This document shows, one piece after another, positions 3,401 through 63,826 of a DNA stretch of 64,000 nucleotides. Below the pieces are notes generated by a model, which ran no database searches, was not told the origin of the DNA, and worked only from the letters and a program-made list of their open reading frames with translations. A program made the translations under genes and the position numbers. Numbering within the stretch: the stretch's first letter is position 1; each line of letters begins with the position of its first letter. The stretch is from assembly GCA_000004695.1 (NCBI GenBank), contig CM000151.3, positions 1,312,001-1,376,000 on the forward strand, given 5' to 3'. The DNA is from Dictyostelium discoideum. Lineage: Eukaryota.

Positions 3401-3601
3401 GATCCAGACTTTTCAGTTTTACTCGAAAATGATTTTAAATCAGAATGTGATACTAAAAACTCTCGTGAATGGTTAATACCAGTTGCTGTTGTAATTCCTG
3501 TTCTCAGTGTTTGTTTTATTGTAGTGATTATCTATATTATTTATAGGAAACAATTTATAGAGAAACCTCTAAAAATAAAATTAGCAGCTTTAGGAAATTA
3601 A
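1..3601 (+). CDS. LRR / EGF-like / IPT-like type I transmembrane protein, tandem paralogue A (exon 1 truncated by window start)
   Basis: Five-exon model, approx exons <1..69, 137..226, 301..435, 572..1264, 1348..3601; all intron phases are 2 and consistent. Exon 4 is ORF 612..1274 (plant-type LxxNxLxGxIP leucine-rich repeats, e.g. FNLNGEIPIIPP and NKLTG|KIP across the intron). Exon 5 is ORF 1472..3601 (Cys-rich EGF-like modules CDCDSNHQGPNC, IPT/TIG-like GWFGDIHSNPSLLIGNQQCQPI..IRCIAPPGNG, C-terminal TM WLIPVAVVIPVLSVCFIVVIIYIIY plus a short tail). About 90% nt identity to copies B and C, including introns. Intron 4 donor is GC (ACAGG|GCATGT) where B and C have GT. Confidence 0.7.
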
Positions 3602-3689
3602 AAATAAATAAATAAATAAATATTAATTGGTATATATATATATTTTGATCTATTCTTTTTTTATCTATAAATCTTTATTGTGATACAAA

Positions 3690-3960
3690 ATCCTTTACAG
3701 GAGGGTTGTTTCAATGATTGAATAAATGATAAATCAGCAACGATCAATATAATCGATTAAAAGAAATTGAGTATTATTTTGGAGTTATAATTAATTTGTA
3801 ATTAATTTTTCATTTATAACCATGAGAATTTCTTTTCACTTAATAAGTAATTGGTAAATAAAACAAGTAGTACCGAATAAACAAATTGAAGAGATTAAAT
3901 TATATTCATAAAATAATTTGATAATTGATTATTACCACTACTATTACAATTTGAAATTAC
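3690..3960 (-). pseudogene. Truncated, stop-containing duplicate of the C-terminal end of the 7TM giant gene (paralogous to 14640..14900)
   Basis: About 80% nt identity to 14640..14900, which on the minus strand encodes ...FQSIIFIVADSSFIQSLQQPSYKGF of the giant gene. Here the equivalent codons read F*SIILIVADLSFIQSLKQPSCKGF (CAA to TAA stop). Similarity ends near 3960-4020. It sits about 90 bp after the stop of copy A, as the intact gene sits 80 bp after copy C. Confidence 0.6.
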
Positions 3961-4473
3961 TAATTCTGAAATTCTATTTGGCTGTAATTGTAAATTTTGA
4001 ATCATTAATTATTATATTTGAATGATTTTTTGAAAGAATACACATAAAACTATAAATCCTCTTTATATATATATAAATAATAAACTTCTTTTATTCGTCT
4101 CTCTGTTGCTAAATCGTCTTCGTTTAAGAATAATTAACTAATATATAAACATGAATAATATTATAAACAGTGTACAACAATTCATTCTTTATTATTATAA
4201 TTAATCAACACAATATAAACCTCTTTAATGATTCCCAAAGACGTCACATTTTATTTTTTTTTTTTATTAAATCACTTAAAAAAAAAAAAAAAAAAAAAAG
4301 ATAACAGAGATGGTGTAATTTGGAAAAAAAAAAAAAAAAAATTGAAAAAAAAAAAAAATTAAAAAAAAAAAACAAATATGAATAAATTAAAAATGATTTG
4401 GATTTTATTTGTTAGCTCTCGTTGGATTAAAAATTGTCCAAATATTAAAAATAAAAATAATTATTCTAGAATG

Positions 4474-4849
4474 TTCATCTAATTCTGTATATTAAATACG
4501 TTGTATCTACAACTGAAAATATTTTAATACCATCAATAATTAATGGTATTTGAGATAACCTATCTTTACTATTTATTGGATTTAAATCATTTAAAATTAA
4601 AATGTTTTTTTTTACATTATTTAATTTTTTTAATATAGTTTTATGATATTTTACGATTTGATCAATTGTTGGATAACATTTTATAAAATGTAAATATAAT
4701 AATAAATCTTTTAAATTTAAATTTATATTATATCTCTTAACTTTGTTTGGAGATAAAAAAAACTATTTTTATCAATCCAAAATAAGATTTAAACAATCTT
4801 TCATTAGAAAAAAAAAAATTTCTACATTATATTCATTTAATAATGACAT
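4474..4849 (-). CDS. Candidate small gene: a stop-free 94-codon reading frame, possibly preceded by an ATG mini-exon
   Basis: Minus-strand frame with no stop from about 4756 to 4474 (..LSPNKVKRYNINLNLKDLLLYLHFIKCYPTIDQIVKYHKTILKKLNNVKKNILILNDLNPINSKDRLSQIPLIIDGIKIFSVVDTTYLIYRIR*), which is unlikely by chance in 80% AT DNA. A possible ATG exon (MSLLNEYN, 4849..4826) joins in frame through a weak, short GTAGAA..ATAG intron of about 63 nt. No canonical start inside the long frame, so it is absent from the ORF track. Confidence 0.25.
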
Positions 4850-5793
4850 TTTCGAAATATATGTAAAAAAAAAAAAGTTAGTGTAATTTTAAAAAAAGTT
4901 GGTGTAATTTAAATTTTTTTTTTTTATTTTTATTTTTTTTTTTTTTACTAAAATGCCCAAAGCATCCTCTTGGTAACCAGCCAAAGGATTCTTATTTAAA
5001 ATCAGATTTAATTAAAAATTTAAATTTAATTGCTGATGATATTATCACCAATTTAAATTTGAATTTTCAACAAAAAAGAACTAAAACAGCTATCAAAAAG
5101 AATTAAAAAAATTAATTCTGATCTTAAAAGCCATACAATATTTGGGATGTCAGATTTCAATTGAAAAATGTTTGAAGTTTTCAATTAACAATATCCTGAA
5201 AAAAAAAAAAGAAAATTGATTTAATAGGATGGGTTGAATCCAACTAAATGTTAAACATAAATAAATAAAAAAATAATCCAAAAATAAATTTTTTATTTTT
5301 CTCATTTTTTTTTTTTTTTTTTCAGATTACGCCATCTCTATTTGGTATTTTTTTTTTTTTTATTTTTTTTTTTTTTTTCAGATTACGCCATCTCTAATAT
5401 TATTTTTATTTTAACTGTGGAGGATATTTTTTTTTAATAAAAAAAAAACCTATAGTTGGTTTTCAATATAGTATGTTGTATAAAACTTTAGTATCATTTG
5501 TGTGCAAAAAACTGGTTCATAATTAAAACAATTTTCTAACACCTCAAATCTGATTTTTTTTTTTTATGATGCGCGTTGCCAAAAAAAAAAAAAAAAAAAA
5601 GATTCACAAGTCAGAAAATAATAAAAAAAAAAAGATATTTTTTCACAGTGGATATTTTTTTTTTTTGATATTTTTTCCTTATTTTTTTTTATTTTTTTTT
5701 TTTTTTCAAAAAAATATCTAATTAAACTGTGAATTGGTTTTATTGATTTTTTTTTTTTTATTTTTTTATTTATTTTGTTTTTTTAGATAATAA

Positions 5794-6213
5794 ATGGTTA
5801 ATTTTTTTATTTGTTTTTTGATGTGTTCAATGTTTTTTTGTTATATTAATTGCATTGAACCTCCAGTAGATGAATATAATTGTTTCTTTGATTTTATTAC
5901 AAAAATAAACCTTTTTTCATTCTATCCAAATACCAATGCTACTCACTATAATTTTTGCACAAATAATATTGTATGTGATGGAGTTACTGGAACAATAAAA
6001 GAGTATGTATTTTATTTTATTTTATTTTATTTTATTTTATTTTATTTTATTTTATTTTATTTTATTTTATTTTATTTTTTTTTTTTTTTTAACTAACTTT
6101 ATTAAATTTATTTTAGTATTACTATATTAAACACCTTAACTAGTGGATATAATAACCAATCAATATTACCAACAGACTTAGCGTGTCTTCCTAATTTTAA
6201 TAGAATGTAGGTA

Positions 6214-6262
<49 letters not shown>

Positions 6263-9200
6263 CCTAATAATTATACAGATATTTCCAAAATCTAGTTATA
6301 TCAAAAGAACTTGTATTTTATCAATTCCCACAAAAAATTAATGAAGTAACATATGATTATGGAGACTATCCTTGCAGTCCGATTGATCAAGAGCTACCTG
6401 GAACATTTGCCTTGTGAGTATTGAAATATTTTTTTTTTTTTGACTACTAAAATTATTTATTAAAAAAAAAAAAAAATAATATTCTAAAATAATATTTTAT
6501 TTTTAGTTATTTTTATTGTAAAACTATTTCGGGAACAACAATAAAAATATCACACATAATGAAACCTTCAATTTTTTATTTTAGAAATAGTTTTGTACAT
6601 TTCGAAAATGATGTTGTTGCAACTCATAATATCTCAACGATTTCATTTTCAGTGTTTTCATTAAGCTTTGCAGATTTTTCTAATTTTATAAGTTTGGGAA
6701 TTTTCCAAATAACTTTCAATCAAGATTTTGTTATTTCATCAATACAAAACTTTTCAACCATTAAATCAAATTCCATCTCAATAGATCACAACCAAAATAA
6801 TTTCTATCCATTTTATGTACCAATAAATAACTCCACTCAATCATTATCAATAGCGGCACTATTTGAAAAACCAAATTCAATGATAGATCTTTCAAGTTAT
6901 GGTTTTAAACATTTACTTTTATCGAAAGTTGGAGAAAAGTTTAATTTAAATGGTGAGATTCCGATAATTCCACCCACTAGTAGCAATTTTTTAATAAACT
7001 TAGGCAATTTTAATGTATTTCCAAACTTAACAAAATTTTCTGGGACTTTTAGTTCATCTGGGTCTAACTTTTCAATTGCTTTACCATCACATTCAGGTAA
7101 AAGTACAATGGTGTCTTTAGTAAATAATAACTTTTTTGGAACAATTGATGAATCTTGGTGCAATGCCAATTTGATAGTCACCGGTAATAAATTAACAGGG
7201 TATGTTTAAATTAATAAAAAAATAATCCATATAAATCTAAATATATCTAACTTTATAATTTTTTTTTTTTATTAATAGAAAAATACCTACATGTTTTACC
7301 TGTTATTTTTCAGATATCTCATTTTTTAATTATTTTTCTGGTAACCAATTTACAAACTACAACCAATCAATTGGGTGTTCTGAATTTGCACCAAGATTTG
7401 AATTGTTGGACATTTCAACCAATACTTTCCGTGTAACAGGTATTAATATAGGGTTTAACCCAAGATATTGGTTATTAAACTCAGTTGACTTTCTAAATAG
7501 TTACCAAGCTATCTCAACGGGATATGAATATGTTGTATCGTATATATTTGCAAGAATACCTAATCCAAAATACTTTAATGTTACATTTGTTCATCCAGCA
7601 CCATCACAAACAATATACTTCCCTCTTGGTGATCAATTACCAAATCCAACCGGTATTAAAATAACATCAAATCAATTAATAATTACAGGTGAATTATTTT
7701 CAAGTTATATGGGTTACTCAAATCAATCAGTCCAATTTGAAGAATCATCTACTAATTGTACAATAAAAGATGGTAATTTCTTTAATATAACTTGTGAATT
7801 TGTACCATCATCTATTTCTACCTTAACATACCCAACAATCATTAAAATTAAAAATGATAATTTAATAAGAAGAGTAATTGTCAATCCATTAATTGGACAA
7901 TTAAATCAAATTCCATGTCCCAATAATTGTGATGATCTTATTAATAAAATCTGTGATCTTTCTAAGGGTATCTGTGTCTGGAAAATTTGTAAAAATGATT
8001 GTGGAATTTTTGGCGAATGTAATGATCAAACTGGAGAGTGTGATTGTGATTCAAATCATCAAGGTCCAAACTGTTCTATACCATTTATACAATGCCCAAC
8101 AGGTTCAAATTCTTTAATTTGTAGTAGTGTAGATTATAATATGTGTAACAATCAAACTGGTATTTGTACTTGCTCAACAAATCAACAAGGTCAAAATTGT
8201 TCATTACCATTTAAACAATGTCCAGTTGGTTTGGATTCCTTAATATGCAGTGGAGGTAATAGCAATTGTAATAATCAAACAGGAGTTTGTTATTGTGATT
8301 CAAATCATCAAGGTTCAACTTGTTCAAAACCATTTAAACAATGTCCAACGGGTCTAAATTCTTTAATTTGTAGTAGTGTAGATAATAATATGTGTAATAA
8401 TCAAACTGGTGTTTGTACATGTTCTCCTAGTCAACAAGGTCAAGATTGCTCATTACCATTTAAGCAATGCCCAGTTGGTTTGGATTCCTTAATATGCAGT
8501 GGAGGTAATAACAATTGTAAAAATCAAACAGGTATTTGTTATTGTGATTCAAATCATCAAGACTCTGATTGCTCATTACCATTTAAACAATGTCCAGTTG
8601 GTTTGGATTCTTTAATTTGTAGTGGGGGTGATAACAACTGTAATAATCAAACTGGTGTTTGTACATGTTCTCCAAATCATCAAGACTCTGATTGCTCATT
8701 ACCATTTAAACAATGTCCAGTTGGTTTAGATTCTTTAATTTGTAGTGGGGGTAATAACAATTGTAATAATCAAACTGGAATTTGTTATTGTGATAGTAAA
8801 TTTACAAATGATAACTGCTCAAAACCAAATCAATATATATCATCTGTTTCACCATCGACCACAAATGGAGGTGAAGCATCATTTTTTGGTTGGTTTGGAG
8901 ATATTCATTCAAATCCATCATTATTAATTGGAGCTCAACAATGTCAACCAATTACATATAATTCTTCAATCGAAATTAGATGTATTGCACCACCAGGTAA
9001 TGGAGTATATGATATTACTTTTAATCAAAATGATATCATGTATCAATTAAGAAATGGTTACAGCTATCTTGAAATTTTTAGAAATTGCCCAAACAATTGT
9101 ACAAATTCAAATCAAGGAAATTGCAATACTTCAAATGGAGAATGTAATTGTATAAACAATTATTACTCATTCGATTGTAGTTTAAAAAGAAATAATAATA

Positions 9201-10042
9201 CAGGTGGTAACAATGGTGGTAATCCATCAATCGATCCATCAACAGGTGGAACTAATATTACTGATAATCAAGTAAATTTCCAAATTTATTTTAAAAATTT
9301 ATTTGAAATCGATTTCAACGGTAATATTGTAAATCAATATTCATTACAAAGTAATTGGACTCTCAATAAAACTAAAGATTCACAAGAAAATAATATTTAT
9401 AAATTGACTCAAATCATTCAACAATCATGTGAAATTGTAACATTGATCGAAGAAATCTCAACATATAAACAATATTCATTTGCAGGCTCAACATTCACAT
9501 TAGATGCTGGTTCAATTAAATTAACAATTTCAATATCAAATTATATTTATAAAAGCAGTTTAAATACATTACAACTTCAATTAATATCATCAGTAGATAA
9601 CGAAAATGAAGAATCAGATTGTAATATTAAACAAGTTTCAACAAATGAAACCAATACATCCTCATTTAAATATATTAAAATTTCAAAAGATAATAGAGTC
9701 CTTCAAGGTAGATTCATTAATCAAATACTATCAGATGGAAGACCAACATATTTGTCAACTGATATTAAAAGTGATGGTAATTCAGTAATTGCAACATTAA
9801 ATCTACCACATTTTGTAAATCAATCAATTATCGATCCAGACTTTTCAGTTTTACTCGAAACTGATTTTAAATCAGAATGTGACAATAAAAACTCTCGTAA
9901 ATGGTTAATACCAGTTGCTGTGACAGTCCCAATCGTTGGTCTTTGTTGTATTGGAGTGATTGTATATTTTTTATATAGAAAACATTTTATTGAGATACCT
10001 CTAAAAGTTAAATTAGAAAGTATTGGAAATAAAATAAAATAA
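5794..10042 (+). CDS. LRR / EGF-like / IPT-like type I transmembrane protein, tandem paralogue B (expanded EGF-module array, about 1296 aa)
   Basis: Exons approx 5794..6002, 6117..6206, 6279..6413, 6507..7199, 7279..10042. Donors GTATGT/GTAGGT/GTGAGT/GTATGT, acceptors after T-rich ..AG. Exon lengths 209/90/135/693 are identical to copy C. Exon 1 encodes a signal peptide (MVNFFICFLMCSMFFCYINC) plus a Cys-containing N-terminus. The last exon has six 41-aa C-x-C EGF-like modules versus two in A and C, then IPT-like, an extra EGF, a roughly 300-aa membrane-proximal domain and a TM (WLIPVAVTVPIVGLCCIGVIVYFLY). The ORF track called 7403 with a TTG start and the frame is open upstream of it, which supports splicing from exon 4. 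Confidence 0.75.
8060..8830 (+). repeat. Coding tandem array of about 123-bp (41-aa) EGF-like module units, six units in copy B
   Basis: Alternating units CSxPFxQCPTGxNSLICSSVDxNMCNNQTGxCTCSxxQQGQx and CSLPFKQCPVGLDSLICSGGxxNCxNQTGxCYCDSNHQxSx, each beginning CS[ILK]PF[IK]QCP, repeated head to tail. Copies A and C have one pair. Confidence 0.8.
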
Positions 10043-10779
10043 TATTAAATAAAATAAAAATAAATAAACAAATAAAATGATAAATTGTCACTATTATTTT
10101 ATTTTTTATATTATTTGTAAATATTATTTAAAAGATTAAGTTTTTATTTTTTTTATTTTTTTTTATTTTTTTTTTAGGTTTAAAAAATTAATTTTTTTTA
10201 TAATAATAATTTGGTCACTAAATGAAATTTCCAAACCTACCTGAAAAGAATATTCTAAACCAAAAAGAAAATTCTTATAATGTTAATCAAAACATTCAAA
10301 TCTGGCAAAAAAAAAAAAAAAAAAATGGAAAAAAAAATGAAAAAATAGCAAAGATTAAATTTTAATTTTTTTTTTTTAACAAAATTAATTATTAGACGTA
10401 AAGATGACGACTGAACATTTGATTTTTTTTTTAAAAAAGATCTTTGAGGCTACCCAAAAAAAAATGAAGAGGTAAAGTAGATATTAAAAAAAAAAAAATC
10501 CTAAAAAAAAAAAAATATCCAAAAATAAAATCAAAAATGTTTATTTCCCAATAAATATCTCAAATCATTTGTTCTTTTTTTTCAAAAATGAGATTACCAT
10601 ATCATTTCAAATAAAACCAATTTTATTATCAAAATAAATTATGGCAGTTATTAAAAAAATAAATGGATATGTTTTTTTACTTACCGAAGATTTTTTTTTA
10701 AATTGATAGTAAAAAAAAAAAAATCTTAATTTTTTTAACATTTTCCATTTTCCATTTTTTTTATAATAATTAGATTTTA

Positions 10780-13700
10780 ATGGGGAAATTTATTATTTGT
10801 TTTTTGTTGTGTTCAATGTTTTTTTGTTATGTTAATTGCATTGAACCTCCAATAGATGAATATAATTGTTTCCTAAATTTTATTACAAAAATAAACCTTT
10901 TTTCATTATTTCCAAAAACCAATGCCACTCACTATGATTTTTGCACAGGATATATAAAGTGTGATGGAGTTACTGGAACAATAAAAGAGTATGTATTTTA
11001 TTATTTTATTTTTTTTATATTATTTTAACTAACTTTATTAAATTTTTTATTAAAGTGTAACTATTTTAAACACTTTAAAAAGTGGATATAATAACCAATC
11101 GATTTTAGCAACAGACTTAGTGTGCCTTCCTAATTTAAATAGAATGTATGTGTATTTAAAACAATGAAATAAAATAAAATTGCTATTAAACATGTTTATT
11201 ATACTTTTATAGAAATCTCCAAAATCTAAATATATCTAAACAGCTTGTTTTTTATGAATTCCCACAAAAAATTGGTCAAGTAACATATAATTATGGAGAC
11301 TATGAGTGTAGTCCAATTGATCAAAAACTACCTGAAATTCCATCTTTGTAAGTTTGGCAAAATCCTTTTTTTTTCTTTTTTTTAAAAATTAAAATTATGG
11401 TATTCTAAAATAATATTTTATTTTTAGTTATTTTTATTGTAAATCCATTTCTGGAACAACATTTAAAATCTCATACATAACAAAACAGACAATCTTTTAT
11501 TTTGGAGATAGTTTTGTACATTTCGAAAATGATGTTCTTGAGACTCATAATATCTCAATGGTTTCATTTACAGCATATTCGTTAAACTTTGCTGACTTTT
11601 CAAATTTTAAAGGTTTGGGATTTTTCAAGATGACTTTCAATCAAGATTTTATTATTTCATCAATACAAAACTATTCAACCATTAAATCAAATTCCATACA
11701 AATTGAGCACGACACAGATTTTCCCTATCCATTTTATATACCAATAAATAATTTCACTCAAAGATTATCAGTATATGCACGTTTTGAAAAACCAAGTTCA
11801 ATGATAGATCTCTCAAGTTTAGTTTATTCGGATTTATCTCTTTCGGGAGTAGGCGACAAGTTTAATTTTAATGGTGAGATTCCGATAATTCCACCACCTG
11901 GTTGCAATTTTATAATAATGCATGGTAATTTTAATGTATTTCCAAATTTTACATATTTTACAGGTGGCTTTACTTCTTTTCAGTCAAACTTTTCAATATC
12001 CTTGCCATCCTATTCAGGTAAAAATACAATGTTTTCAATGATAAACAATAACTTGATTGGAACAATTGATGAATCTTGGTGCAATGTCAATTTGATAATT
12101 TATAATAATAAATTAACAGGGTATGTTTAATTAAAAATTAAAATAAAAATTAATTATATTAAAAAATAAATAAATATAAAAATAAACAAATTTAACTTTA
12201 TCTAACTTTTTTTTAATAATAGAAAAATACCTACATGTTTTACTTGTTATTTTTCGGATCCTGCGGTTTATACTTCTTTTTCTGGTAACCAATTTACAAA
12301 CTACAACCAATCAATTGGGTGTTCTGAATTTGCACCAAGATTTGAATTGATGGATTTTTCAACTAAAACTTTCCGTGTAACAGGTATTAATATAGGCTTT
12401 ACTCCTATGAATTGGTTATTAAACTCAGTTTACTTTCCTTATAGTTTCCAAGATATCTCAACGGGATATGAATATGTTGTGTCGTATTTATTTTCAATAA
12501 TACCTAATCCAAAATACTTTAATGTTACATTTGCTCATCCAGAACCATCACAAACAATATACTTCCCTCTTGGTGATCAATTACCAAATCCAACCGGTAT
12601 TAAAATAACATCAAATCAATTATTAATTACAGGTGAATTATTTTCAAGTTATATGGGTTACTCAAATCAATCAGTCCAATTTGAAGAATCATCTACTAAT
12701 TGTACAATAAAATATGGTAATTTCTTTAATATAACTTGTGAATTTGTACCATCATCTATTTCTACCTTAACATACCCAACAATCATTAAACTTAAAAATG
12801 ATAATTTAATAAGAAGAGTTATTGTCAATCCATTAATTGGACAACTAAATCAAATTCCATGTCCAAATAATTGCGATGATCTTAATAATAGTATTTGTGA
12901 TCTTAATCAAGGTATTTGTATCAGTTGTGTAGATGATTGTGGAATATTCGGTGAATGTAATTTTCGAACCAGAACCTGTGATTGTGATTCAAATCATCAA
13001 GGTCCAAATTGTTCTATACCATTTATACAATGTCCAACAGGTTTAAATTCTTTAATTTGTAGTAGTGTAGATTATAATATGTGTAACAATAAAACTGGTG
13101 TTTGTACTTGTTCTCCAAATCAACAAGGTCAAGATTGTTCATTACCATTTAAACAATGCCCAGTTGGTTTGTATTCGTTAATATGCAGTGGAGGTAATAA
13201 CAATTGTAACAATCAAACAGGTATTTGTTATTGTGATAGTAAATTTATAAATGATGATTGTTCAAAACCAAATCAATATATATCATCTGTTTCACCATCA
13301 ACCTCAAATGGAGGTGAAGCATCATTTTTTGGTTGGTTTGGAGATATTCATTCAAATCCATCATTATTAATTGGAAATCAACAATGTCAACCAATTACAT
13401 ATAATTCTTCAATCGAAATTAGATGTATTGCACCACCAGGTAATGGAGTATATGATATTACTTTTAATCAAAATGATATCATGTATCAATTAAGAAATGG
13501 TTACAGCTATCTTGAAATTTTTAAAAAATGTCCCAACAATTGTACAAATTCAAATCAAGGAAATTGTAATACTTCAAATGGAGAATGTAATTGTATAAAC
13601 AATTATTACTCATTCGATTGTAGTTTAAAAAGAAATAATAATACAGGTGGTAACAATGGTGGTAATCCATCAATCGATCCATCAACAGGTGGGACTAATA

Positions 13701-14485
13701 TTACTGATAATCAAGTAAATTTCCAAATTTATTTTAAAAATTTATTTGAAATCGATTTCAACGGTAATATTGTAAATCAATATTCATTACAAAGTAATTG
13801 GACTCTCAATAAGACTAAAGATTCACAAGAAAATAATATTTATAAATTAACACAAATCATTGAAATATCATGTGAAATTGTAACATTGATCGAAGAAATC
13901 TCAACATCTAAACAATATTCATTTGCAGGCTCAACATTCACATTAGATGCTGGTTCAATTAAATTAACAATTTCAATATCAAATTATATTTATAAAAGCA
14001 GTTTAAATACATTACAACTTCAATTAATATCATCAGTAGATAACGAAAATGAAGAATCAGATTGTAATATTAAACAAGTTTCAACAAATGAAACCAATAC
14101 ATCCTCATTTAAATATATTAAAATTTCAAAAGATAATAGAGTCCTTCAAGGTAGATTCATTAATCAAATACTATCAGATGGAAGACCAACATATTTGTCA
14201 ACTGATATTAAAAGTGATGGTAATTCAGTAATTGCAACATTAAATCTACCACATTTTGTAAATCAATCAATTATCGATCCAGACTTTTCAGTTTTACTTG
14301 AAAATGATTTTAAATCTGAGTGTGATACTTACAACTCTCGTAAATGGTTAATACCAGTTGCTGTGGCAGTTCCAATCTTTGGTGTTTGTTGTATTGGAGT
14401 GATTATATATTATTTTTATAGAAAACATTTTATTGAAATACCACTAAAAATAAAATTAGGAATTATTGGGAATAAAATAAAATAA
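10780..14485 (+). CDS. LRR / EGF-like / IPT-like type I transmembrane protein, tandem paralogue C (about 1129 aa)
   Basis: Exons approx 10780..10988, 11056..11145, 11213..11347, 11428..12120, 12223..14485. Same architecture and phases as copy B. Signal peptide MGKFIICFLLCSMFFCYVNC. TM WLIPVAVAVPIFGVCCIGVIIYYFY. Stop at 14483..14485. Confidence 0.75.
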
Positions 14486-53572: not shown

Positions 53573-53643
53573 GGGGAGATCCGAGAATCGAACTCAGGAC
53601 GCTACCACCCAAAGGTAGCATTATACCACTTAACTAATCTCCC
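53573..53643 (-). tRNA. tRNA-Pro (anticodon UGG), 71 nt, no intron
   Basis: Reverse complement of 53573..53643: GGGAGAT TA GTTA AGTGGTA TAAT G CTACC TTTGGGT GGTAG CGTC CTGAG TTCGATT CTCGG ATCTCCC C. 7-bp acceptor stem, D stem GTTA/TAAT (one G-U), anticodon loop TTTGGGT (U33, anticodon TGG, G37), T arm CTGAG/TTCGATT/CTCGG, discriminator C. A-box and B-box-like sequences are present. Confidence 0.85.
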
Positions 53644-54580
53644 TTTTTGATGAAATTGAAGATTTATAGTAAAAAAAATTCCAAAAGTATTATTTTATCA
53701 CTTTTAAAATATACTTAAGTGGTAAAATAGATTATTTGAGTGGTATAATCTCCCTTTTTGATCAAATTGAAGTTTTTTTAAAAATAATATCCCAATTTTT
53801 TCCTTTTTGAAAGAATGGAAGGTTTATTGAAAAAAAATATCCCAGTTTACTAATTCTCCTTGATTATTTTAAACTTTATTATATCATAAAATGGAATTTC
53901 ATATTCCTTACCTCCCAATACTACATTAATACGAAAATTACACTAAAAACTACAACAACAACAACTACAACAACAACTACAACAACAACTACAGAAACAA
54001 TCAATCAAAAAACATCTTCCTAATATTTTTAAAAATAAAAACTGTATAAAAAATTGAGGCCTTTAGAATTATAAACCCAAGGAGTGGTAATTAACCAATG
54101 AATTATTCATTTTAAAAAAAAAAAACTTTAAAAGAATCCTAATAATAAAAAAGCTATAACAAAACTAGGGCCTAATAGTTTTTAAAAACTCTATATGAGA
54201 ATCAACTTACAATTGCATTACCCAATCCAAAAAAAAAAATGAATGTATTAAATAAGTTAATAAAATCTTTTTGTATTTTTTATTTTTTTATTAAATATCA
54301 GGATAGAAATGATTTAAATTTATTTAATGAAAAATCAATTCTTTGTATATAAAAAAAAAAAAAAAAGATTTTTTAACTGAAAATGAGATCAAATTTTGAT
54401 CGGGTTACAAAACAATTTTCAAAGTATTTTAATTAAATTTTTTTTTTTTTTTTTTTTTTTTTCCTTTTTTTTTTTTTTTTTTTTAATCAGTTAAAAAAAA
54501 AAAAAAATCAACATTTTATTATTTTTTTTTCCAACTTTTTTTCATAATACAAATAATAATATAACAATAATTAATAACAA

Positions 54581-55730: not shown

Positions 55731-58700
55731 TTATTTTCTTGGTGGAATGATTGGTTTTTTAGTAAGATTGAGATCTGATGTTTGTGGTGAATGTGGTGGT
55801 GTTGCAGTTGGAGTTGTTGTATTTGTTGTTGGTGGAAATGGAACAGGTGAATTATTATTAATATTATTATTATTATTTACAGCAACATTAACAGCACTAC
55901 CTCCACGTGGTGGTAATGGCATAACTCTTGGTTTACCAGTTGGAGGTGTTGTAAAATCAGTATTGCTATTATTATTATTATTATTGGCAGATGATGGTAA
56001 TGAAAGATCATCTTTAGTTATATTATTATTATTAGTATTATTTTTTACAGAAGAAGGTACAAAAGAGGAATGTGATGTTGATGGTACAAATGTTGATGCA
56101 GATCTTGCACTATTATTTGGTGCTGCTTGTTTCAAATTTGATAATTTTGATGGGAAAGCAATTGGTTTAGCTGGTTGGTTTGTTGTTGTTGTAGTTGTTG
56201 TTGTTGTTGAAGAATTTGAAGTATTATTATTATTTATTAATGTTGATACAGGAGCAGGTGCTGTAAATGAACCTGGTTTAGGTAAGGGTCTTGTTGTTTT
56301 TGTTGGTACAGTATTATTATTTTCATTTTGTTGTGTTATTACAGGTTGAGAAGGAGTAGGAGTAGTGGTTGGTGTTACAGATAATGGTCTTTGTTGTCTT
56401 GATGGAATTGGTGGTGCTTGTTCAGTTGTGGCAGGTTGTTGTTGTTGTGGGGATGATGTTTGATTTGAATTTGTTATAAATGTTTTCTTTATAGTTGAAG
56501 TTGGTCTTGGTTTTGCAATTGGTGTTTGTGATGGTAATGGTGTTGAAGCTGAATCAACAATTGTTGGTGGTTCATCAATAACAACTGTAGTATTAGTAGT
56601 AGTGGTAGTAGGTGTAATTGTTGCAGAAGATTTTGATTTTGGTGGTGGAGGTGGTAATGGTTTTGAAGGAATTGCATGAACTGGTTTTGATTGTTGTTGT
56701 TGTTGTTGTAATGCACCAGCAGCAGTTTGAGTTCTATGTAATGATTTTGGAGAATCAGAAGAGATACCATTTGAAGAAGGATTAGTAGTTGCAATTGTAC
56801 TTCTTTTAATATGATCTAAAACTTTATCAGCATTTCTAGAATATTCTTCACGATGTGGTTTAATTAATTCATCCAAATCAGTGAACCATTCCATTTTTTG
56901 TTCGTAAGAATCTGCAACCAATGTGAATCTTCTACCGGTGGTACCAGGTTGACTAATTTCAAAGGTATTACAAAATGAACTACCTCTATTCTCCTCGCCA
57001 TCAACATTTGTAGAGGCAATGATGAATAGAGTTTCGAGACGAATTGATTTCTTATCTTTTTGAGTTCTCATAATAATATCATTAAAGAGATAATAATGCA
57101 TTCTACCAGAGATTTTATCTTTTTCCTCGGTTAATTCACCAAAAGTTGCTTCACGAATCAAGTAACGAGTTGGAGTGAAGAATACAAATTTCTCGGGTGC
57201 TTGTAATTTTTCATGAATTTTATACATTTTTTGATGAATTTCAGCTTTTCTTTTACTTTCATTAACAGAGAGAACCACCTCTTGAATTTCAGTGTATGCT
57301 TTCTCTAGATTCGCTAAATCCGGATGACCTTCACAACTATTCTTTATGAGTTCTCTTAGTAGTAATGGATATTTACAAAGACGTTGAACTGGTTTAATTA
57401 GAAAACTCTCTAAATTACATTGTCTACATTCTGTACTTGCTTGTTTCTCCTCTAGAAACTGTTTAAATGATGGTATCTTTTTACTACAACGTGCAATATG
57501 GTCGGCTGAAATGGTCTGATTTGCACAATAACCACTATAGATTTTCAAATATTTAAAGAAATAGATAAAACATGTACCAACTGTATGATTTGGTTTCTCA
57601 TCTGGTGCTTTTTGTAAGAGGTCACTTAACAACTCTTTATTTACATTCAATAGTAATTGAATATTTGAAAATATTATTGAAATATCTTTATCGGGTATAA
57701 TCTTTGACTCCTTTAATGGTGTCAATATAAAATTTACAATTATATTTAAATCTGCTATATAATCTTTCTCTGTATTAATAATTTCATTAATTACCATGTT
57801 TCTCATTTTATTTTCACCTTCTTCTTTCATTACATTTTGATGTATAACTTGTGCAAATGCTCTTGTAACTTTAATTACAACTTCTCTCTTTGTACCACCA
57901 TTTGGTGATGATATAACTGATGATCCTGATGATAATTCTGTTTTATCACCAACTAAATTATTTGTTGAATTATTATTATTATTATTTGTTGTTGTAGTAG
58001 TTGTACCACTATCTGTTCCACCACCAACATTTATATTCTCTGTAGATGGTGATGTATTTAATCCTCCACTACCTGTTGTTGTTGTAGTTGTTGTTATATT
58101 ACTTAAATCACTTGATGATATTGATTTTTCAATACCTTCACTATTAATTGGTGTTGGTGTTGATGTTCTACTACCATTACTATTATTATTATTATTTGTT
58201 GTTTCATTATTTTCAATATTTGAATCTGTTGTATTATTCTGTATTATATTTGCATCTTCTGAACTTATACTATTTCTATCTGTTGTATTATTCGCTAAAT
58301 TATTACTACTACTATTATTATTATTATTACTCTCTATAAATGATTTACTTGGTGATGAATCAATTTGAACTGGTGAAGTTGATCTTTCAATAATTAATGA
58401 ATTTGATTTTTTAACAGAGAATATCTTTGAAATTACAGATGGTTCTCTAGTTAATTGTACTTTAGTTGGTGTTGAATCTTTATCTTTTTGTTCAGTAATA
58501 TCTTCTTTTTCTTTTTCTTTTTCTTTTTGTTCCCTTTTAGATTTTTCTTTTTCTTCTTTTAATTTCTCTTTTTCTTCTTTTTGTTTTTGTTTTTCCATTT
58601 CTAAACGTTCCTTTTCATCTTTAATCTTTTGTTCTTTTTCTTCTTTTTGTTTTTGTTTTTCCATTTCTAAACGTTCTTTCTCATCTTTAATCTTTTGTTC

Positions 58701-59168
58701 TTTTTCTTCTTTTTGTTTTTGTTTCTCCATTTCTAATCTTTCTTTTTCCTCTTTTTGTTTTTGTTTCTTTAAATTCTTATCTTCTTTTGAATTCAATTTA
58801 TTTGATGATCCTTTTGATTTAGTTGGTGTAATCATTGAATCTGGTGTTGATGTTGCTGATGTTGGTGTTGTTGAATTTGTTGTTTCTGATTCATCTGTTG
58901 TTGATGTTGTTGCTGTTGTTGTTGTTGTTGTTGCAGTAGTAGTAGGAGAAGTAGTAGTGGCAGTAGTTGTGGTGGTATTATTTGATGATGATGATAATGA
59001 CGATGATGATTCTTTTTGTTGTTCATCTTCAATATTTAAACTATCCCTATTACTACTGATATCACTATTTGTATCATTAACAACTTGTTGATCTATGGCA
59101 ACTTCTTTTTTATTTTCTTCTGATTGTTCATCTATTGTTAAAACATATCGAAAAAATTTAATTTTCAT
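55731..59168 (-). CDS. Rho guanine-nucleotide exchange factor (DH-PH), 1145 aa, with a Lys/Glu-rich tandem-repeat coiled coil and a Pro/Thr-rich C-terminus
   Basis: DH domain: VINEIINTEKDYIADLNIIVNFILTPL...LIKPVQRLCKYPLLLRELIKN. PH-like: RMHYYLFNDIIMRTQKDKK...RFTLVADSYEQKMEWF. N-terminal region holds three copies of a 22-aa unit (KDEKERLEMEKQKQKEEKEQKI) encoded by a 66-bp DNA repeat at about 58598..58795. C-terminal third is Pro/Thr/Asn-rich with PPPPK. Confidence 0.75.
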   Translation of the reverse strand: MKIKFFRYVLTIDEQSEENKKEVAIDQQVVNDTNSDISSNRDSLNIEDEQQKESSSSLSSSSNNTTTTTATTTSPTTTATTTTTTATTSTTDESETTNSTTPTSATSTPDSMITPTKSKGSSNKLNSKEDKNLKKQKQKEEKERLEMEKQKQKEEKEQKIKDEKERLEMEKQKQKEEKEQKIKDEKERLEMEKQKQKEEKEKLKEEKEKSKREQKEKEKEKEDITEQKDKDSTPTKVQLTREPSVISKIFSVKKSNSLIIERSTSPVQIDSSPSKSFIESNNNNNSSSNNLANNTTDRNSISSEDANIIQNNTTDSNIENNETTNNNNNSNGSRTSTPTPINSEGIEKSISSSDLSNITTTTTTTGSGGLNTSPSTENINVGGGTDSGTTTTTTNNNNNNSTNNLVGDKTELSSGSSVISSPNGGTKREVVIKVTRAFAQVIHQNVMKEEGENKMRNMVINEIINTEKDYIADLNIIVNFILTPLKESKIIPDKDISIIFSNIQLLLNVNKELLSDLLQKAPDEKPNHTVGTCFIYFFKYLKIYSGYCANQTISADHIARCSKKIPSFKQFLEEKQASTECRQCNLESFLIKPVQRLCKYPLLLRELIKNSCEGHPDLANLEKAYTEIQEVVLSVNESKRKAEIHQKMYKIHEKLQAPEKFVFFTPTRYLIREATFGELTEEKDKISGRMHYYLFNDIIMRTQKDKKSIRLETLFIIASTNVDGEENRGSSFCNTFEISQPGTTGRRFTLVADSYEQKMEWFTDLDELIKPHREEYSRNADKVLDHIKRSTIATTNPSSNGISSDSPKSLHRTQTAAGALQQQQQQSKPVHAIPSKPLPPPPPKSKSSATITPTTTTTNTTVVIDEPPTIVDSASTPLPSQTPIAKPRPTSTIKKTFITNSNQTSSPQQQQPATTEQAPPIPSRQQRPLSVTPTTTPTPSQPVITQQNENNNTVPTKTTRPLPKPGSFTAPAPVSTLINNNNTSNSSTTTTTTTTTNQPAKPIAFPSKLSNLKQAAPNNSARSASTFVPSTSHSSFVPSSVKNNTNNNNITKDDLSLPSSANNNNNNSNTDFTTPPTGKPRVMPLPPRGGSAVNVAVNNNNNINNNSPVPFPPTTNTTTPTATPPHSPQTSDLNLTKKPIIPPRK

Positions 59169-59673
59169 TTTTAATATTTTTCCAAATTCGAGAGTGATTA
59201 GTATTTTTTTTTTTTTTTTAGAAAATTATTGTTGTTGTTGTTGTTGTGTGATTGTGAATTAGTAATGCGTGTGTGTGAGTGATTTTTTTTTTTTTTTTTT
59301 TTTTTTTTTGGTATGTTTATATTATTTAATGTGATATAAAAATAAATAAATAAATAAAAAATAAAATAAAAATAAAAATAAAATAATATATTTACCTTTG
59401 GTCATTTTTTTTTTTTTTTTTTTATTTAATTTTGAATTTTTTTTTTTAAAAAAAAAAATATATATATATTTGTATTAAATTTTAATTATTGCTACTATTA
59501 TACATAAATTATTACTTTATAATTGGTTAATATTTTTTTTTTTTTTTTTTTTTATTGAATGTGTGATAAAGTGGTAAAATGGTTAGTGTTAGGAAAAAAA
59601 AAAAAAGAAAAAGAAAAACAATGATTGTAAAATTATTTTGATTAAATTATTATGAATGAGGGGGAATTTTTAT

Positions 59674-59708
59674 GTGGTTTGTGGTTTGTGGTTTGTGGTT
59701 TGTGGTTT
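59674..59708. repeat. (GTGGTTT)5 heptanucleotide microsatellite
   Basis: Five perfect tandem copies of GTGGTTT in intergenic DNA. Confidence 0.9.
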
Positions 59709-59799
59709 TTTGTGTATGTATGGTATTTTTTTAAGTGTTGATTTATTTAAATATATATGTATATATATACACAGTTTTTTATTTAAATTTTTTTTTTTT

Positions 59800-59844
<45 letters not shown>

Positions 59845-61617
59845 ATTTTTTATTGTTCTATTTTTATTTTTATTTTTTTTTTTTTTTATTTTTATTATTT
59901 ATCAACTTTATTTCAAAATCTTTTATTTTACAAAAATGAGATTGAAGTTAGATTTAAAAAAAAAAAAAGTGAGAATGGTTTAAAAATAAATAAATAAATA
60001 AATTAATATAAAAACGAATTAATAAACCAATAAATAAATAAATAAATTTGTGAATAAATAAAGCGAGATGGCTTTTTTTTTTTTTTTTTGAAAGAGAAAA
60101 AAAAAAAAAAAATTGAAAAAAAAAAGGATTTGATTTTTTTTTTTTTTTTTTTTTTGTTTAAAGGCAATTTTCAAGGTATTTTCAAATAAAAAAATCGTGA
60201 AAAAAAAAAAAAAATTTGAATAGAGATATTAAAAAATTTAATACCATTGAATAAATAATTGGTGTATTATGTAAAAAAAAAAAAAAAAAAAAAAAAATAA
60301 AACAAAACAAAATGAAAAAAAAATTAAAATTATAAAAAAAAATAAAATAAAATAATAATCAAAAGTAAGAAATGGATTTTGGTTCTTTTTGTTGTGGGAT
60401 AACAAATTTTCTATTTTTGTAATTTTTATTTTTTTTTTTTTTTTTATTTTTAGTTTTTTTTTTTTTTTTTTTTTAAATGTGTTTCCAATAAAATCAAATA
60501 TAGTTGATTATTTTACAGACAAATCAAAACTTAAAATTTAGATTTTATTTCATTTCCTTATTGATGATATCTTAAAATTAAAGATTAAAAGGTTTACCAT
60601 TGGTGCAAGGCCATAGATCGAAATCACTTTTATCTATTACACACAATTCCAATTTCACACAATTCCAATAACCAATCATTATCTTTTTACCACAAAAAAA
60701 TTTATTAAAAAAAAAAATATAAAAAAAATAAAATATAAAATAAAATAAAATAAAATAAAATAAAATAATAATAATAATAAAGTAAACATAAAGAAAAAAA
60801 ATTTTAAAATAAAATAAGAAATGGAATCATTTAAATAAAAAAAAAAAAATAAAAAAAAAAAAGAAAAAAAAAATTATATGAAATAAAAAAAAAAAAAAAA
60901 AAAAAAATTTATTTATATGAAAAAATAATTGTAATTAAACATTTATTCAACTAATTATTAACTGTAACTTATTTGAAATTTTTTAATGAATGCATTTTTT
61001 ATATCTTTTTGAAAAAAAAAAAAAAAAAAAGGTGAATGGTAAAATGTATTGTTTTATGGTGAAAATAAACAAATTTCAAATTCACTAAAAGCAAAAAAAA
61101 AAACTTTATTATTCAATTTTGTTAAAGGTAAAAATAAAAATAAAAAAAATTGAATAAATAAAGTTTTTTTTTGATTTTAGTGTTTTATAGTGAAAATAAA
61201 AATAAAAATAAAAATAAAAATAAATAAAAAAAGTACATCCACTTATCTTTTTTCATATTTATTTTTAAATAATAGAATTATGATTTCGTGTCTGTAGTAT
61301 TTTTTTTTTTTTTTTTTTTTATTTTATTTTTAATTTTTTTATATTTATTTTTTGATTATTATTTTTAATAAAAAAAACAGAAACCAAAAAAAAAAAATAA
61401 AGAAAGGAATTAATAAAAAAAAATAAAAAAACAAAAAACAATTAATTTTTTATTTTTATTTTTATTTTTTTTTTCCTGAAAAAAAAGTTTTCGTTACTCG
61501 CTTGTAAAAAAAAAAAAAAAAATTTCAAAAAAAAAAAAAATTGTATGCCTGCTTTAAAAATTAATTTTTCAAATTTTTTTCAGTCTTTTTCGCAATAATT
61601 TCCGATAACATCACAAT

Positions 61618-62599
61618 ATGGGGTATGTCACACTCACTCATTATCACTCCACAATGTCACTATGTCTCTTTTTATATCAATACAAATAATAGATAAATGA
61701 TAAATGATAAAGATTAATTGAAAATTGTTAATAGATAATCATAATAAAGTTGTGTGGTAAAAAAGAGATAATCACACTCACCACTCAATCAATCATCACA
61801 AACACACACGCATCATGTATCACACATATATCATATCATAACACATACTCGCACGACCAATTTTAAACTCTACATCATACTAATATGAAAACAATAATTG
61901 AAAAAATAGTAAGCCAAATGGTTTAAAAACAGCTAGAAAGCTTAGAAATCACAGAAGAGTCCAAAGATGGAACGATAAACTCTACAAAAAGGCTCATTTC
62001 GGTACTGCTCTTAAAGGTTTGTATTTTAATGAAGAGAGTGAAAATTAAGAGAAAATCAAAACAATAAACTAACAACTTTTTTTTATTTCAAATATAGCCA
62101 ATCCATTCGGTGGTGCCTCCCATGCCTCTGGTATCGTCGTAAGCAGACTTGGTATCGAAGGTATGTTTTAAAGAAACAAAGAAACAAAAAATAATACAAA
62201 AACTAAAAATCACAAATACTAATTCTTTTTTTTATTATTTTTAAAAATACAGCCAAACAAGTAAGGATTTATTTTATTTAGGTTTAGGTTAAATTTTTTA
62301 ATATATTTTTAGGGGTTTATACTAATTTTTAATTATCTATTTTATTACAGCCAAATTCTGCCATCCGTAAATGTGTCAGAGTTCAATTAAAAAAGAACGG
62401 TAAAAAGATCACTGCTTTCGTTCCAAACGATGGTTGTTTAAATTACATCCAAGAAAATGACAAAGTTTTAGTTGCTGGTCTCGGTCGTTCAGGTCACTCT
62501 GTCGGTGATATTCCAGGCGTCCGTTTCAAGGTTGTCAAAGTTTCATCCGTCTCCCTCATTGCCATCTACCGTGGTATCAAAGATAAACCAAACGTATAA
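61618..62599 (+). CDS. rps23: 40S ribosomal protein S23 (uS12), five exons including an 8-nt micro-exon, 143 aa
   Basis: Exons approx 61618..61622 (ATGGG, donor GTATGT), 61910..62016 ([35 protein letters not shown]), 62098..62161 ([21 protein letters not shown]), micro-exon 62253..62260 (CCAAACAA, giving AKQ; flanked by ..ATACAG| and |GTAAGG), 62351..62599 ([82 protein letters not shown]). Matches eukaryotic RPS23 throughout. Only the model with the micro-exon keeps the frame. Confidence 0.85.
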
Positions 62600-63028
62600 A
62601 TAAATATTGGGATAATAAATCTTTTTTAAAAAAAAAAGTAAATTCATTTTTTAAATATGGTCATTCATTTATATATTTATTTTTCCATCACTTTTTTTTA
62701 AAAAAATTAATATGTTTTTTTATTTTAAAAAATAAAAGAATTATTATAATAATAATACAAATAATTTTTAAACTTGAATATTTGAATTTTTTATTTATTT
62801 TAAATTCAATTTGCCAATTTTTTTAAAAAAAAAAAAAGAAAAAGAAAAAAAAAGTCTTTTTTTTTTTTATTTTTTTAAAATTAAATTAATAAACACCACC
62901 CCGAATACAAACAAATAATTTGTTTTTTTTATTTTATTTTTTTAAAATTTTATTTTTTTTTCATCCATATAAACATATAATATACATATATATTAAATTT
63001 TTAATAATAATAATAATAATAATAAATA

Positions 63029-63826
63029 ATGAAAATTAATGGGAAAACATTTGTGGTGACAGGTGGAGCTTCAGGTTTAGGATTAGAGACAAGTAGACAT
63101 CTTAGATCATTAGGAGCAAATATATTTATAATGGATATGAATGAAGAAAATGGTAGAAAAGTTGTTGAAGAATTAGGTAGTGATAAAACTATGTTTTCAT
63201 CAGTTGATATAACATTGGAGGATTCTGTTAAATTATCATTAGAACATTGTTTAAAGAAATTTAAAGAAATTCATGGTGTTATAAATTGTGCAGGTGTTGC
63301 AGCTGCACAAAGGGTAATTAAAAGGGATGGTCAAGTTCATCCATTGGATTTATTCACTCGTGTAGTTATGGTTAATCTTATTGGTACTTTCAATGTAATT
63401 AGATTAGTTGCTGATATAATACATAACCAAAATCAACCATCATCAAAAGATGGTGGTGAAGAAGAGGAAGAGAAAGGTGTTTTCATTATGACTGCATCAG
63501 TTGCTGCATTCGAGGGTCAGGTAGGCCAATCTGCATATTCTGCAAGCAAAAGTGGTGTTGTTGGTATGACACTACCAATGGCTAGAGAATTTGCTACTTT
63601 AAAAATTAGAATCAATACAATTGCACCTGGAACATTCGAAACACCAATGGTGGAAATGTTACCTCAAGCTGCAATTAAATCAATCAATGAATCAATTCCT
63701 TTTCCATCTAGAATGGGTAAACCAAAAGAATTTGCTTTCTTATGTCAACATTTAATTGAAAATACTTATATAAATGGTGAAGTTATTAGATTAGATGGCG
63801 CACTTCGTTTATCAAAATTGTAAAAA
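63029..63826 (+). CDS. Short-chain dehydrogenase/reductase; 3-hydroxyacyl-CoA dehydrogenase type-2 (HSD17B10)-like; 265 aa, single exon
   Basis: TGGASGLG Rossmann motif. NCAGVAAAQ. Catalytic YSASKSGVVGMTLPMAREF. Then [47 protein letters not shown], closely parallel to human HSD17B10 ([90 protein letters not shown]). Confidence 0.85.

Follow-up and report, generated by a model that had tools for sequence, protein, structure and literature searches.

The window, a 64-kb stretch of Dictyostelium discoideum DNA, contains an ordinary gene for ribosomal protein uS12/S23 (rps23) at positions 61618-62599, in AT-rich DNA typical of Dictyostelium. Its four introns are all of the GT...AG type (287, 81, 92, and 90 nt), and the spliced CDS of 432 nt encodes a protein of 143 aa ending in KDKPNV. 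The gene and its parts are as follows.

61618-62599, forward strand: uS12/S23 (rps23) gene, with exons of 5, 107, 63, 8, and 249 nt
61487..61617, forward strand: putative promoter and 5' leader, with GTTTTCGTTACTCGCTTGT, an A run, TGTATGCCTGCTTTAAAAATTAA (TATA-like), a T run, and TCAGTCTTTTTCGC...ATCACAAT, followed by the ATG
61618..61622, forward strand: coding part of exon 1, ATGGG (Met and two bases of Gly2), followed by gtatgt
61623..61909, forward strand: intron 1, 287 nt, GTATGT...TAG, phase 2 in codon 2
61910..62016, forward strand: exon 2, 107 nt
62017..62097, forward strand: intron 2, 81 nt, GTTTGT...TAG, with ACTAAC at 62068
62098..62160, forward strand: exon 3, 63 nt, 3' end ..ATCGAAG
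62161..62252, forward strand: intron 3, 92 nt, GTATGT...ACAG, A-rich, with TACTAAT at 62217-62223
62253..62260, forward strand: micro-exon CCAAACAA, the last two bases of Ala59 with Lys60 and Gln61, directly before Pro62
62261..62350, forward strand: intron 4, 90 nt, GTAAGG...ACAG, T-rich, with TACTAAT at 62320-62326
62351..62599, forward strand: exon 5, 249 nt, starting CCAAAT (Pro62), with the stop codon TAA at 62597-62599

AATAAA occurs at 62599 and 62614, at the 3' end of rps23. The promoter and start site within 61487..61617 are presumptive assignments.

The surroundings of rps23 contain further genes and repeats, and the order RhoGEF-rps23-SDR is kept in related Dictyostelium loci.

612-14485, forward strand: three tandem paralogous ComC-like genes with ComC beta-sandwich, EGF, and supersandwich domains, each split into an ORF of ~200 aa and one of ~700-880 aa
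46012-47241, reverse strand: TRAF-type zinc finger/MATH gene
53573-53643, reverse strand: tRNA-Pro(UGG) gene, the sole match in the window in an Rfam scan at gathering threshold
53650-54300, beside the tRNA-Pro gene: repeated fragments (..CTCCCTTTTTGAT.AAATTGAAG..) and a (CAA/CTA)n tract, which could be the remnant of a tRNA-targeted retroelement
55731-59168, reverse strand: RhoGEF gene, divergent from rps23 and ~2.4 kb from it
59225-59285 and 59600-59712, reverse strand: tracts upstream of the RhoGEF gene, CA-rich on that gene's own sense strand (..ATCACTCACACACACGCATTACTAATTCACAATCACACAACAACAAC.. and (CCACAAA)5 followed by ATTCCCCCTCATTCATAATAATTTAATC)
60592-60700: isolated C-rich stretch ~1 kb upstream of rps23, within intergenic DNA of ~90% A+T, with two copies of the direct repeat CACACAATTCCAAT and no Rfam match
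63029-63823, forward strand: short-chain dehydrogenase (SDR) gene, 430 nt downstream of rps23

Both RhoGEF tracts are conserved in most related loci and have no Rfam match, and the first shares CACACACGCAT with intron 1 of rps23.

The coding model was derived by an exhaustive, depth-first search that tried each ATG within 61000-62700 as a start, with all GT-AG introns from 30 to 1500 nt long. A single model in this interval encodes the uS12 protein, and this model needs the 8-nt exon. An earlier note on this DNA had maintained that one reading alone gives the conserved protein, and had assigned the gene (rps23/uS12), the 8-nt exon, and a 287-bp intron 1 after ATGGG; the search and an identical reference protein bear out each of these assignments. 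By exact-sequence look-up, the 143-aa product is the same as EAL71277.1 / RS23_DICDI ('40S ribosomal protein S23 [Dictyostelium discoideum AX4]'), and PF00164 (Ribosom_S12_S23) is precomputed for the protein identical to it and for its gene calls. Residues 1-142 align to residues 1-142 of the 40S S23 chain 7oya_X2 (E=2e-75, phmmer against the PDB), and translation and PDB alignment place both the eukaryotic MGK N-terminus and the conserved decoding-centre loop in the product. Reading through into rps23 from upstream hits a stop codon at 61899-61901, seen directly in the sequence. In the long introns of Limulus the same search returned spurious 2-3-nt exons, so that it is trustworthy only over short gaps such as those in rps23. 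The gene is most probably single-copy and constitutively expressed from its five-part CDS.

The micro-exon is bounded by atacag| upstream and |gtaagg downstream, just where it had been described. Any micro-exon that fits this position must match AG-CNAARCAR-GT, and this pattern has one match on the two strands of the 64 kb, exactly at 62253; for the 190 nt that separate exons 3 and 5, local base composition predicts 3e-5 matches. The match is far beyond chance. Skipping of the micro-exon gives ..IEAKFCHP*, with the frame shifted and a stop after five codons. The junctions had been put at 62161/62253 and 62260/62351; the second stands, and the first becomes 62160/62253, given that exon 3 ends at 62160. 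The micro-exon is not new: as one GT-AG model alone gives EAL71277.1, the reference annotation must already hold the 8-nt exon. The remark that predictors often miss such exons is inapplicable here, EAL71277.1 being the micro-exon model and AKQ being present in 10 of 10 other Dictyostelium annotations. CCAAACAA is identical in 11 Dictyostelium loci with diverged flanking introns. The loci carrying the uS12 protein in the protein look-up are all genome assemblies, and it is from the deposited protein, from conservation, and from the model being unique that usage of the micro-exon is predicted.

Orthologous loci were compared from eight further Dictyostelium genomes with an identical protein (L001-L008), D. 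purpureum (L009), D. citrinum (L010), and the more distant dictyostelids Heterostelium (L011), Acytostelium (L012), and Cavenderia (L013). The exhaustive search gave a unique model in each. The 5/107/63/8/249 structure recurs in the 10 other Dictyostelium loci, all closely related (the CDS differs at 0-10 sites, and at 39 in D. purpureum), and the comparison with D. purpureum that the earlier note had proposed finds both this structure and CCAAACAA there. D. discoideum and D. purpureum split ~400 My ago (figure cited in PMC4683709), and the micro-exon is therefore old. A second protein search found no further dictyostelid proteins with the exon-5 peptide.

Outside this group the gene is organized differently. 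Heterostelium and Acytostelium have one 286-nt exon over the region and Cavenderia one of 421 nt, each with a single intron elsewhere, the uS12 intron of group 1-2 dictyostelids lying at N97^D98. Anaeramoeba uS12 has exons of 4/107/321 nt, and the fish and Limulus genes have introns at K54^V55 and E95^E96; the Macleaya uS12 model is chimeric. None of Heterostelium, Acytostelium, Cavenderia, Anaeramoeba, the fish, and Limulus has the micro-exon or introns 2-4. Given these different structures, group-4 Dictyostelium is the only group among the genomes compared in which introns 3 and 4 are seen, and with them the 8-nt exon. Intron 2 nearly coincides with an Anaeramoeba intron (nt 112 vs. 111), and the CDS is broken right after ATGG in Anaeramoeba and Limulus also. 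Given the near-match of intron 2, joint loss of introns in groups 1-2 may be an alternative to gain in group 4; adjacent, 3'-ward introns tend towards joint loss in Dictyostelium, a loss described as RT-mediated (PMC4683709).

The comparison also revealed errors in deposited models. D. citrinum, Acytostelium, and Heterostelium all have models that get the 5-nt coding exon 1 wrong; in each, an ATGGG|GT start lies upstream. Every Dictyostelium locus keeps ATCACAATGGG|GTATG at the end of exon 1, as does Acytostelium (L012 position 3068), and the corresponding sequence in Heterostelium is ATGGG|GTAGAG (L011 position 3099). The D. citrinum model (L010:2739-3011) runs across the intron-1 acceptor and so begins MKYSKPNG, and ATGGG|GTATGT is found 262 nt upstream of that start. 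The Acytostelium protein is annotated as MSAKPQG, with ATCACAATGGG|GTATGC inside its annotated intron, and the Heterostelium protein is annotated with 196 aa despite an upstream ATGGG|GTAGAG. In Cavenderia the model (247 aa, L013:3001-5089) is fused to an upstream HTH_3 gene, and no upstream ATGGG was found. The mis-calls and the fusion give wrong N-termini, one extended protein, and one fused protein. As the mis-calls all fall at the 5-nt exon, and the 8-nt exon is annotated, the annotation-vulnerable exon is the 5-nt coding start and not the 8-nt exon.

Intron 1 differs in composition from the other introns of the gene. Its base fractions are A.44, C.19, G.09, and T.29, and C makes up.03-.10 of introns 2-4. 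The intron had been called C/A-rich, with quoted strings that are located at 61629-61660 and 61773-61817; the C enrichment holds, and the sequence is better described as C-rich and G-poor. The same is seen in 11 of 11 Dictyostelium loci, where the C fraction of intron 1 is 0.14-0.29 vs. 0.01-0.14 in the other introns and where intron 1 is always the longest (155-318 nt vs. 58-97 nt). Along its length the intron is organized as a C-rich zone (61623-61672, 30% C), an AT-rich middle zone with all five GATAA and both TAAATGA of the intron, and a second C-rich zone (61773-61870, 34% C). The following elements can be distinguished.

61629..61660, forward strand: C-rich block 1, CACACTCACTCATTATCACTCCACAATGTCAC, mean identity 0.74 across species
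61689..61712, forward strand: AT-rich block with two TAAATGA and three of the five GATAA, ~0.8-0.9 per-base identity in group-4 species
61773..61870, forward strand: C-rich block 2, a low-complexity CA/ATCA tract with 34% C and 4% G, identity 0.45
61878..61884, forward strand: putative branch site TACTAAT, conserved, 27 nt from the 3' splice site

Conservation was measured as mean identity to the window in a locus-wide alignment of ten species (nine other Dictyostelium loci). Positions -140..-1, the putative promoter and leader, are the most conserved non-coding stretch of the locus (0.86), and the background at -700..-401 stands at 0.49. Introns 2 and 3 have 0.58 and intron 4 has 0.66. The first 98 nt of intron 1 reach 0.74-0.75 among what are close relatives, with block 1 missing in two (L007 and D. 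purpureum), and the second C-rich tract has 0.45. Block 2 gives way in orthologs to other C-rich repeats; L004, for instance, carries (CACT)n, and L006 and L010 have CAA/ATCA runs. Conservation of the long CA tract is thus limited to composition, whereas the 5' part of the intron is conserved in sequence. Since the compared species are close relatives, the identity of 0.74 in the 5' part may partly reflect nearness to the splice site or promoter rather than a function of its own, and the compositional conservation of the CA tract could be due to mutation bias rather than selection.

It is plausible from the alignment, with modest probability, that the 5' part of intron 1 (61623-61720) has a regulatory role, as a continuation of the conserved promoter block and for example as an intronic enhancer or by intron-mediated enhancement. 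The first ~98 nt may hold transcriptional or splicing-efficiency signals that extend the promoter, and the remaining C-rich, G-poor stretch would be an unstructured low-complexity spacer, turning over by slippage and indels with its composition kept. Intron 1 itself is the intron next to the start codon that distant eukaryotes have in almost the same position. The promoter-proximal regulatory content proposed in the earlier note is compatible with the conserved first ~98 nt; the long CA tract lacks sequence conservation.

Alternatively, the C-rich tracts themselves may be functional sense-strand cis-elements, either DNA sites for a CA/GT-box factor such as GBF or a protein platform on the pre-mRNA, that raise the transcription or splicing of a gene with very high expression, and such elements may also lie at the 5' ends of other genes. 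Although its sequence turns over, intron 1 stays C-enriched in 11 of 11 Dictyostelium loci. The window has few C-rich, G-poor tracts in its non-coding DNA, and intron 1 holds both copies of CACACTCAC in the 64 kb and 5 of the 16 CACAC of the window. The 11-mer CACACACGCAT also occurs twice in the 64 kb, its second copy lying in the 5' region of the divergent RhoGEF gene, on that gene's sense strand, a hint, drawn from two genes only, that sense-strand CA tracts may recur at gene 5' ends. However, the main tract lies at the neutral level of conservation (0.45 vs. 0.49) and varies in the form of simple repeats ((CACT)n, CAA runs), as is typical of slippage. The k-mers shared by deep intron-1 orthologs (TCAATCA, ATCACAT, AATGATAA) are barely above shuffled controls, no motif in these deep comparisons clearly exceeding them, and the recurrence amounts to two genes' worth of evidence. 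The tract presumably resembles the CAEs (C/A-rich promoter elements) and the G boxes bound by GBF, but GBF drives post-aggregation genes and ribosomal protein genes are growth-phase genes, a timing at odds with such a role. A cis-element function of the tracts is therefore possible but doubtful, and a promoter-extending 5' part followed by a spacer is preferred.

Splicing of so small an exon can be accounted for by the introns around it. The 5' ends of rps23 introns are of GTAWGK type and the 3' ends are YAG, and an ACTAA motif lies 15-36 nt before the 3' end in every intron of every ortholog. Because introns 2-4 are short (58-97 nt across loci) and each carries its own 5' end, TACTAAT-type branch site, and YAG, each intron flanking the micro-exon would be recognized as a unit by intron definition. 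Exon-spanning recognition would then be unneeded and no minimal exon size required, which would make an 8-nt exon usable. Introns 3 and 4 are probably removed sequentially and not simultaneously, as the 3' and 5' splice sites are only 8 nt apart. Downstream of the micro-exon, intron 4 contains a conserved repeat, the one conserved element other than splice signals to stand out.

62277..62290, forward strand: TTTAGGTTTAGGTT element, starting 16 nt into intron 4, 17-30 nt past the micro-exon
62308-62313, forward strand: third TTTAGG of intron 4

TTTAGGTTTAGGTT is found in all group-4 loci, with TTTAGCATTTAGCAT at the matching place in D. purpureum, and is a candidate intronic splicing enhancer. 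To our knowledge, a conserved TTTAGG repeat downstream of a micro-exon has no described counterpart. The literature on Dictyostelium micro-exons, rps23, promoter motifs of ribosomal protein genes, and CA-rich elements, as far as searched, yielded nothing particular to this gene. RNAalifold over ten species found no conserved structure across intron 3, the micro-exon, and intron 4 (-1.4 kcal/mol, no covariation). Pairing of the TTTAGG repeat with CCAAA was considered and rejected, both for the lack of covariation and because D. purpureum carries TTTAGC.

A wider proposal would combine these observations. Within ~100-250 nt past the start codon, the sense-strand C-rich tracts and the conserved GATAA/TAAATGA block would form an undescribed 5'-proximal expression element, kept in composition and shared with the RhoGEF gene, and the TTTAGG repeat would separately be a dedicated micro-exon splicing enhancer. 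As a whole, this is considered improbable.

The micro-exon could also be a regulated switch, in which skipping leads to an early stop and an NMD substrate and allows uS12 or growth signals to tune the gene's own mRNA. Several ribosomal protein genes of yeast, worms, and mammals tune themselves in this way, the skipped product of rps23 does stop early, and the conserved TTTAGG repeat lies just 3' of the micro-exon. The micro-exon and exon 5 also both begin AG|CCAAA after similar acceptors, the acceptor regions of introns 3 and 4 (62228-62257 and 62326-62355, including CCAAA) being 77% identical over 30 nt. However, this likeness amounts to T-rich low complexity and native coding CCAAA, RNAalifold found no conserved structure around the micro-exon, and both flanking introns have strong conserved signals that fit constitutive use. 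A regulated switch is accordingly judged highly unlikely. Origin of the micro-exon by duplication was likewise rejected, introns 3 and 4 being otherwise dissimilar and their acceptor likeness, for the reason given, not being evidence of duplication. Constitutive inclusion by intron definition is the preferred reading.

The weakest proposal, that excised intron 1 yields a small RNA (box C/D or H/ACA snoRNA, miRNA, or Class I RNA), is not supported by the small-RNA and snoRNA searches suggested in the earlier note, which were run with Rfam and a box C/D scan and gave no candidate. The intron is 3-4 times longer than the other introns of the gene and unusually C-rich, and a box-C-like string, GTGATGA, is found on its antisense strand. 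However, the Rfam scan of 61000-63000 gave no family match in intron 1 at E<=10, with only chance matches or none there and also in 59150-61000 at E<=1. The box C/D scan looked for a box C (RUGAUGA) close to the 5' end and, 55-160 nt away, a box D (CUGA) close to the 3' end. CTGA is absent from the sense strand of intron 1 in 13 of 13 orthologs, which argues against a box C/D snoRNA, and in the 13 orthologous introns no C..D box pair occurs on the sense strand, with antisense pairs arising only by chance in two loci. The minimum free energy of intron 1 is -25.5 kcal/mol vs. a shuffle mean of -29.8 (z=+1.18; less stable than 178 of 200 shuffles), and the antisense strand has z=+1.26. As folding is no better than that of shuffles, a hairpin-based RNA (H/ACA, miRNA precursor) is ruled out, and the C-rich tract is in addition not conserved in sequence. 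DDB_G0283293, the host of CD38, is taken here to be a gene other than rps23. All 47 D. discoideum box C/D snoRNAs except CD38 (in an intron of DDB_G0283293) are intergenic, and rps23 is unmentioned in that work (PMC8817022). A small RNA in intron 1 is thus extremely improbable.

Taken as a whole, the locus is a known uS12 gene, very probably with a constitutive micro-exon and an intron 1 that hosts no small RNA. Scientifically very little hangs on it, since the reference annotation already has both the gene and the micro-exon right, and the practical value lies in annotation quality: the 8-nt exon is handled well and the 5-nt start is wrong in at least three dictyostelid genomes. The locus also provides a compact natural test case for a spliceosome working by intron definition on two introns 8 nt apart, and a candidate for asking whether C-rich first introns affect expression in a genome of 80-90% A+T.

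Relative to the CAEs and G boxes of Dictyostelium developmental genes, the tract of rps23 intron 1 appears alike in its CACAC/GTGTG runs within AT-rich non-coding DNA at the 5' end of a gene, and would differ in being intronic, in belonging to a growth-phase gene, and in not being conserved in sequence. GBF-bound elements are characterized by paired half-sites of GTGTG/GGGTG type and by developmental induction. Introns of ribosomal protein genes host snoRNAs in animals. Intron 1 of rps23 resembles such host introns, known from animals and some plants, in its unusual length, but differs in lacking box C/D or H/ACA features, structure, and a conserved core, and the snoRNAs of D. discoideum differ in turn in being almost all intergenic (PMC8817022). 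The protein resembles solved 40S uS12 chains (PF00164) over its full length and is ~80% identical to the vertebrate proteins. A start-codon-proximal interruption of the gene is common to rps23, Anaeramoeba, and Limulus, whereas the fish and Limulus genes carry introns at K54^V55 and E95^E96 in place of rps23 introns 3 and 4. In contrast to the SRRM4-type regulated neuronal micro-exons of animals, the 8-nt exon of rps23 is apparently not alternatively spliced. Its likeness is to the constitutive micro-exons of short-intron genomes, with which it shares a tiny internal exon, canonical AG/GT borders, and strong branch sites on both sides, and like them it is frame-essential and conserved between species.
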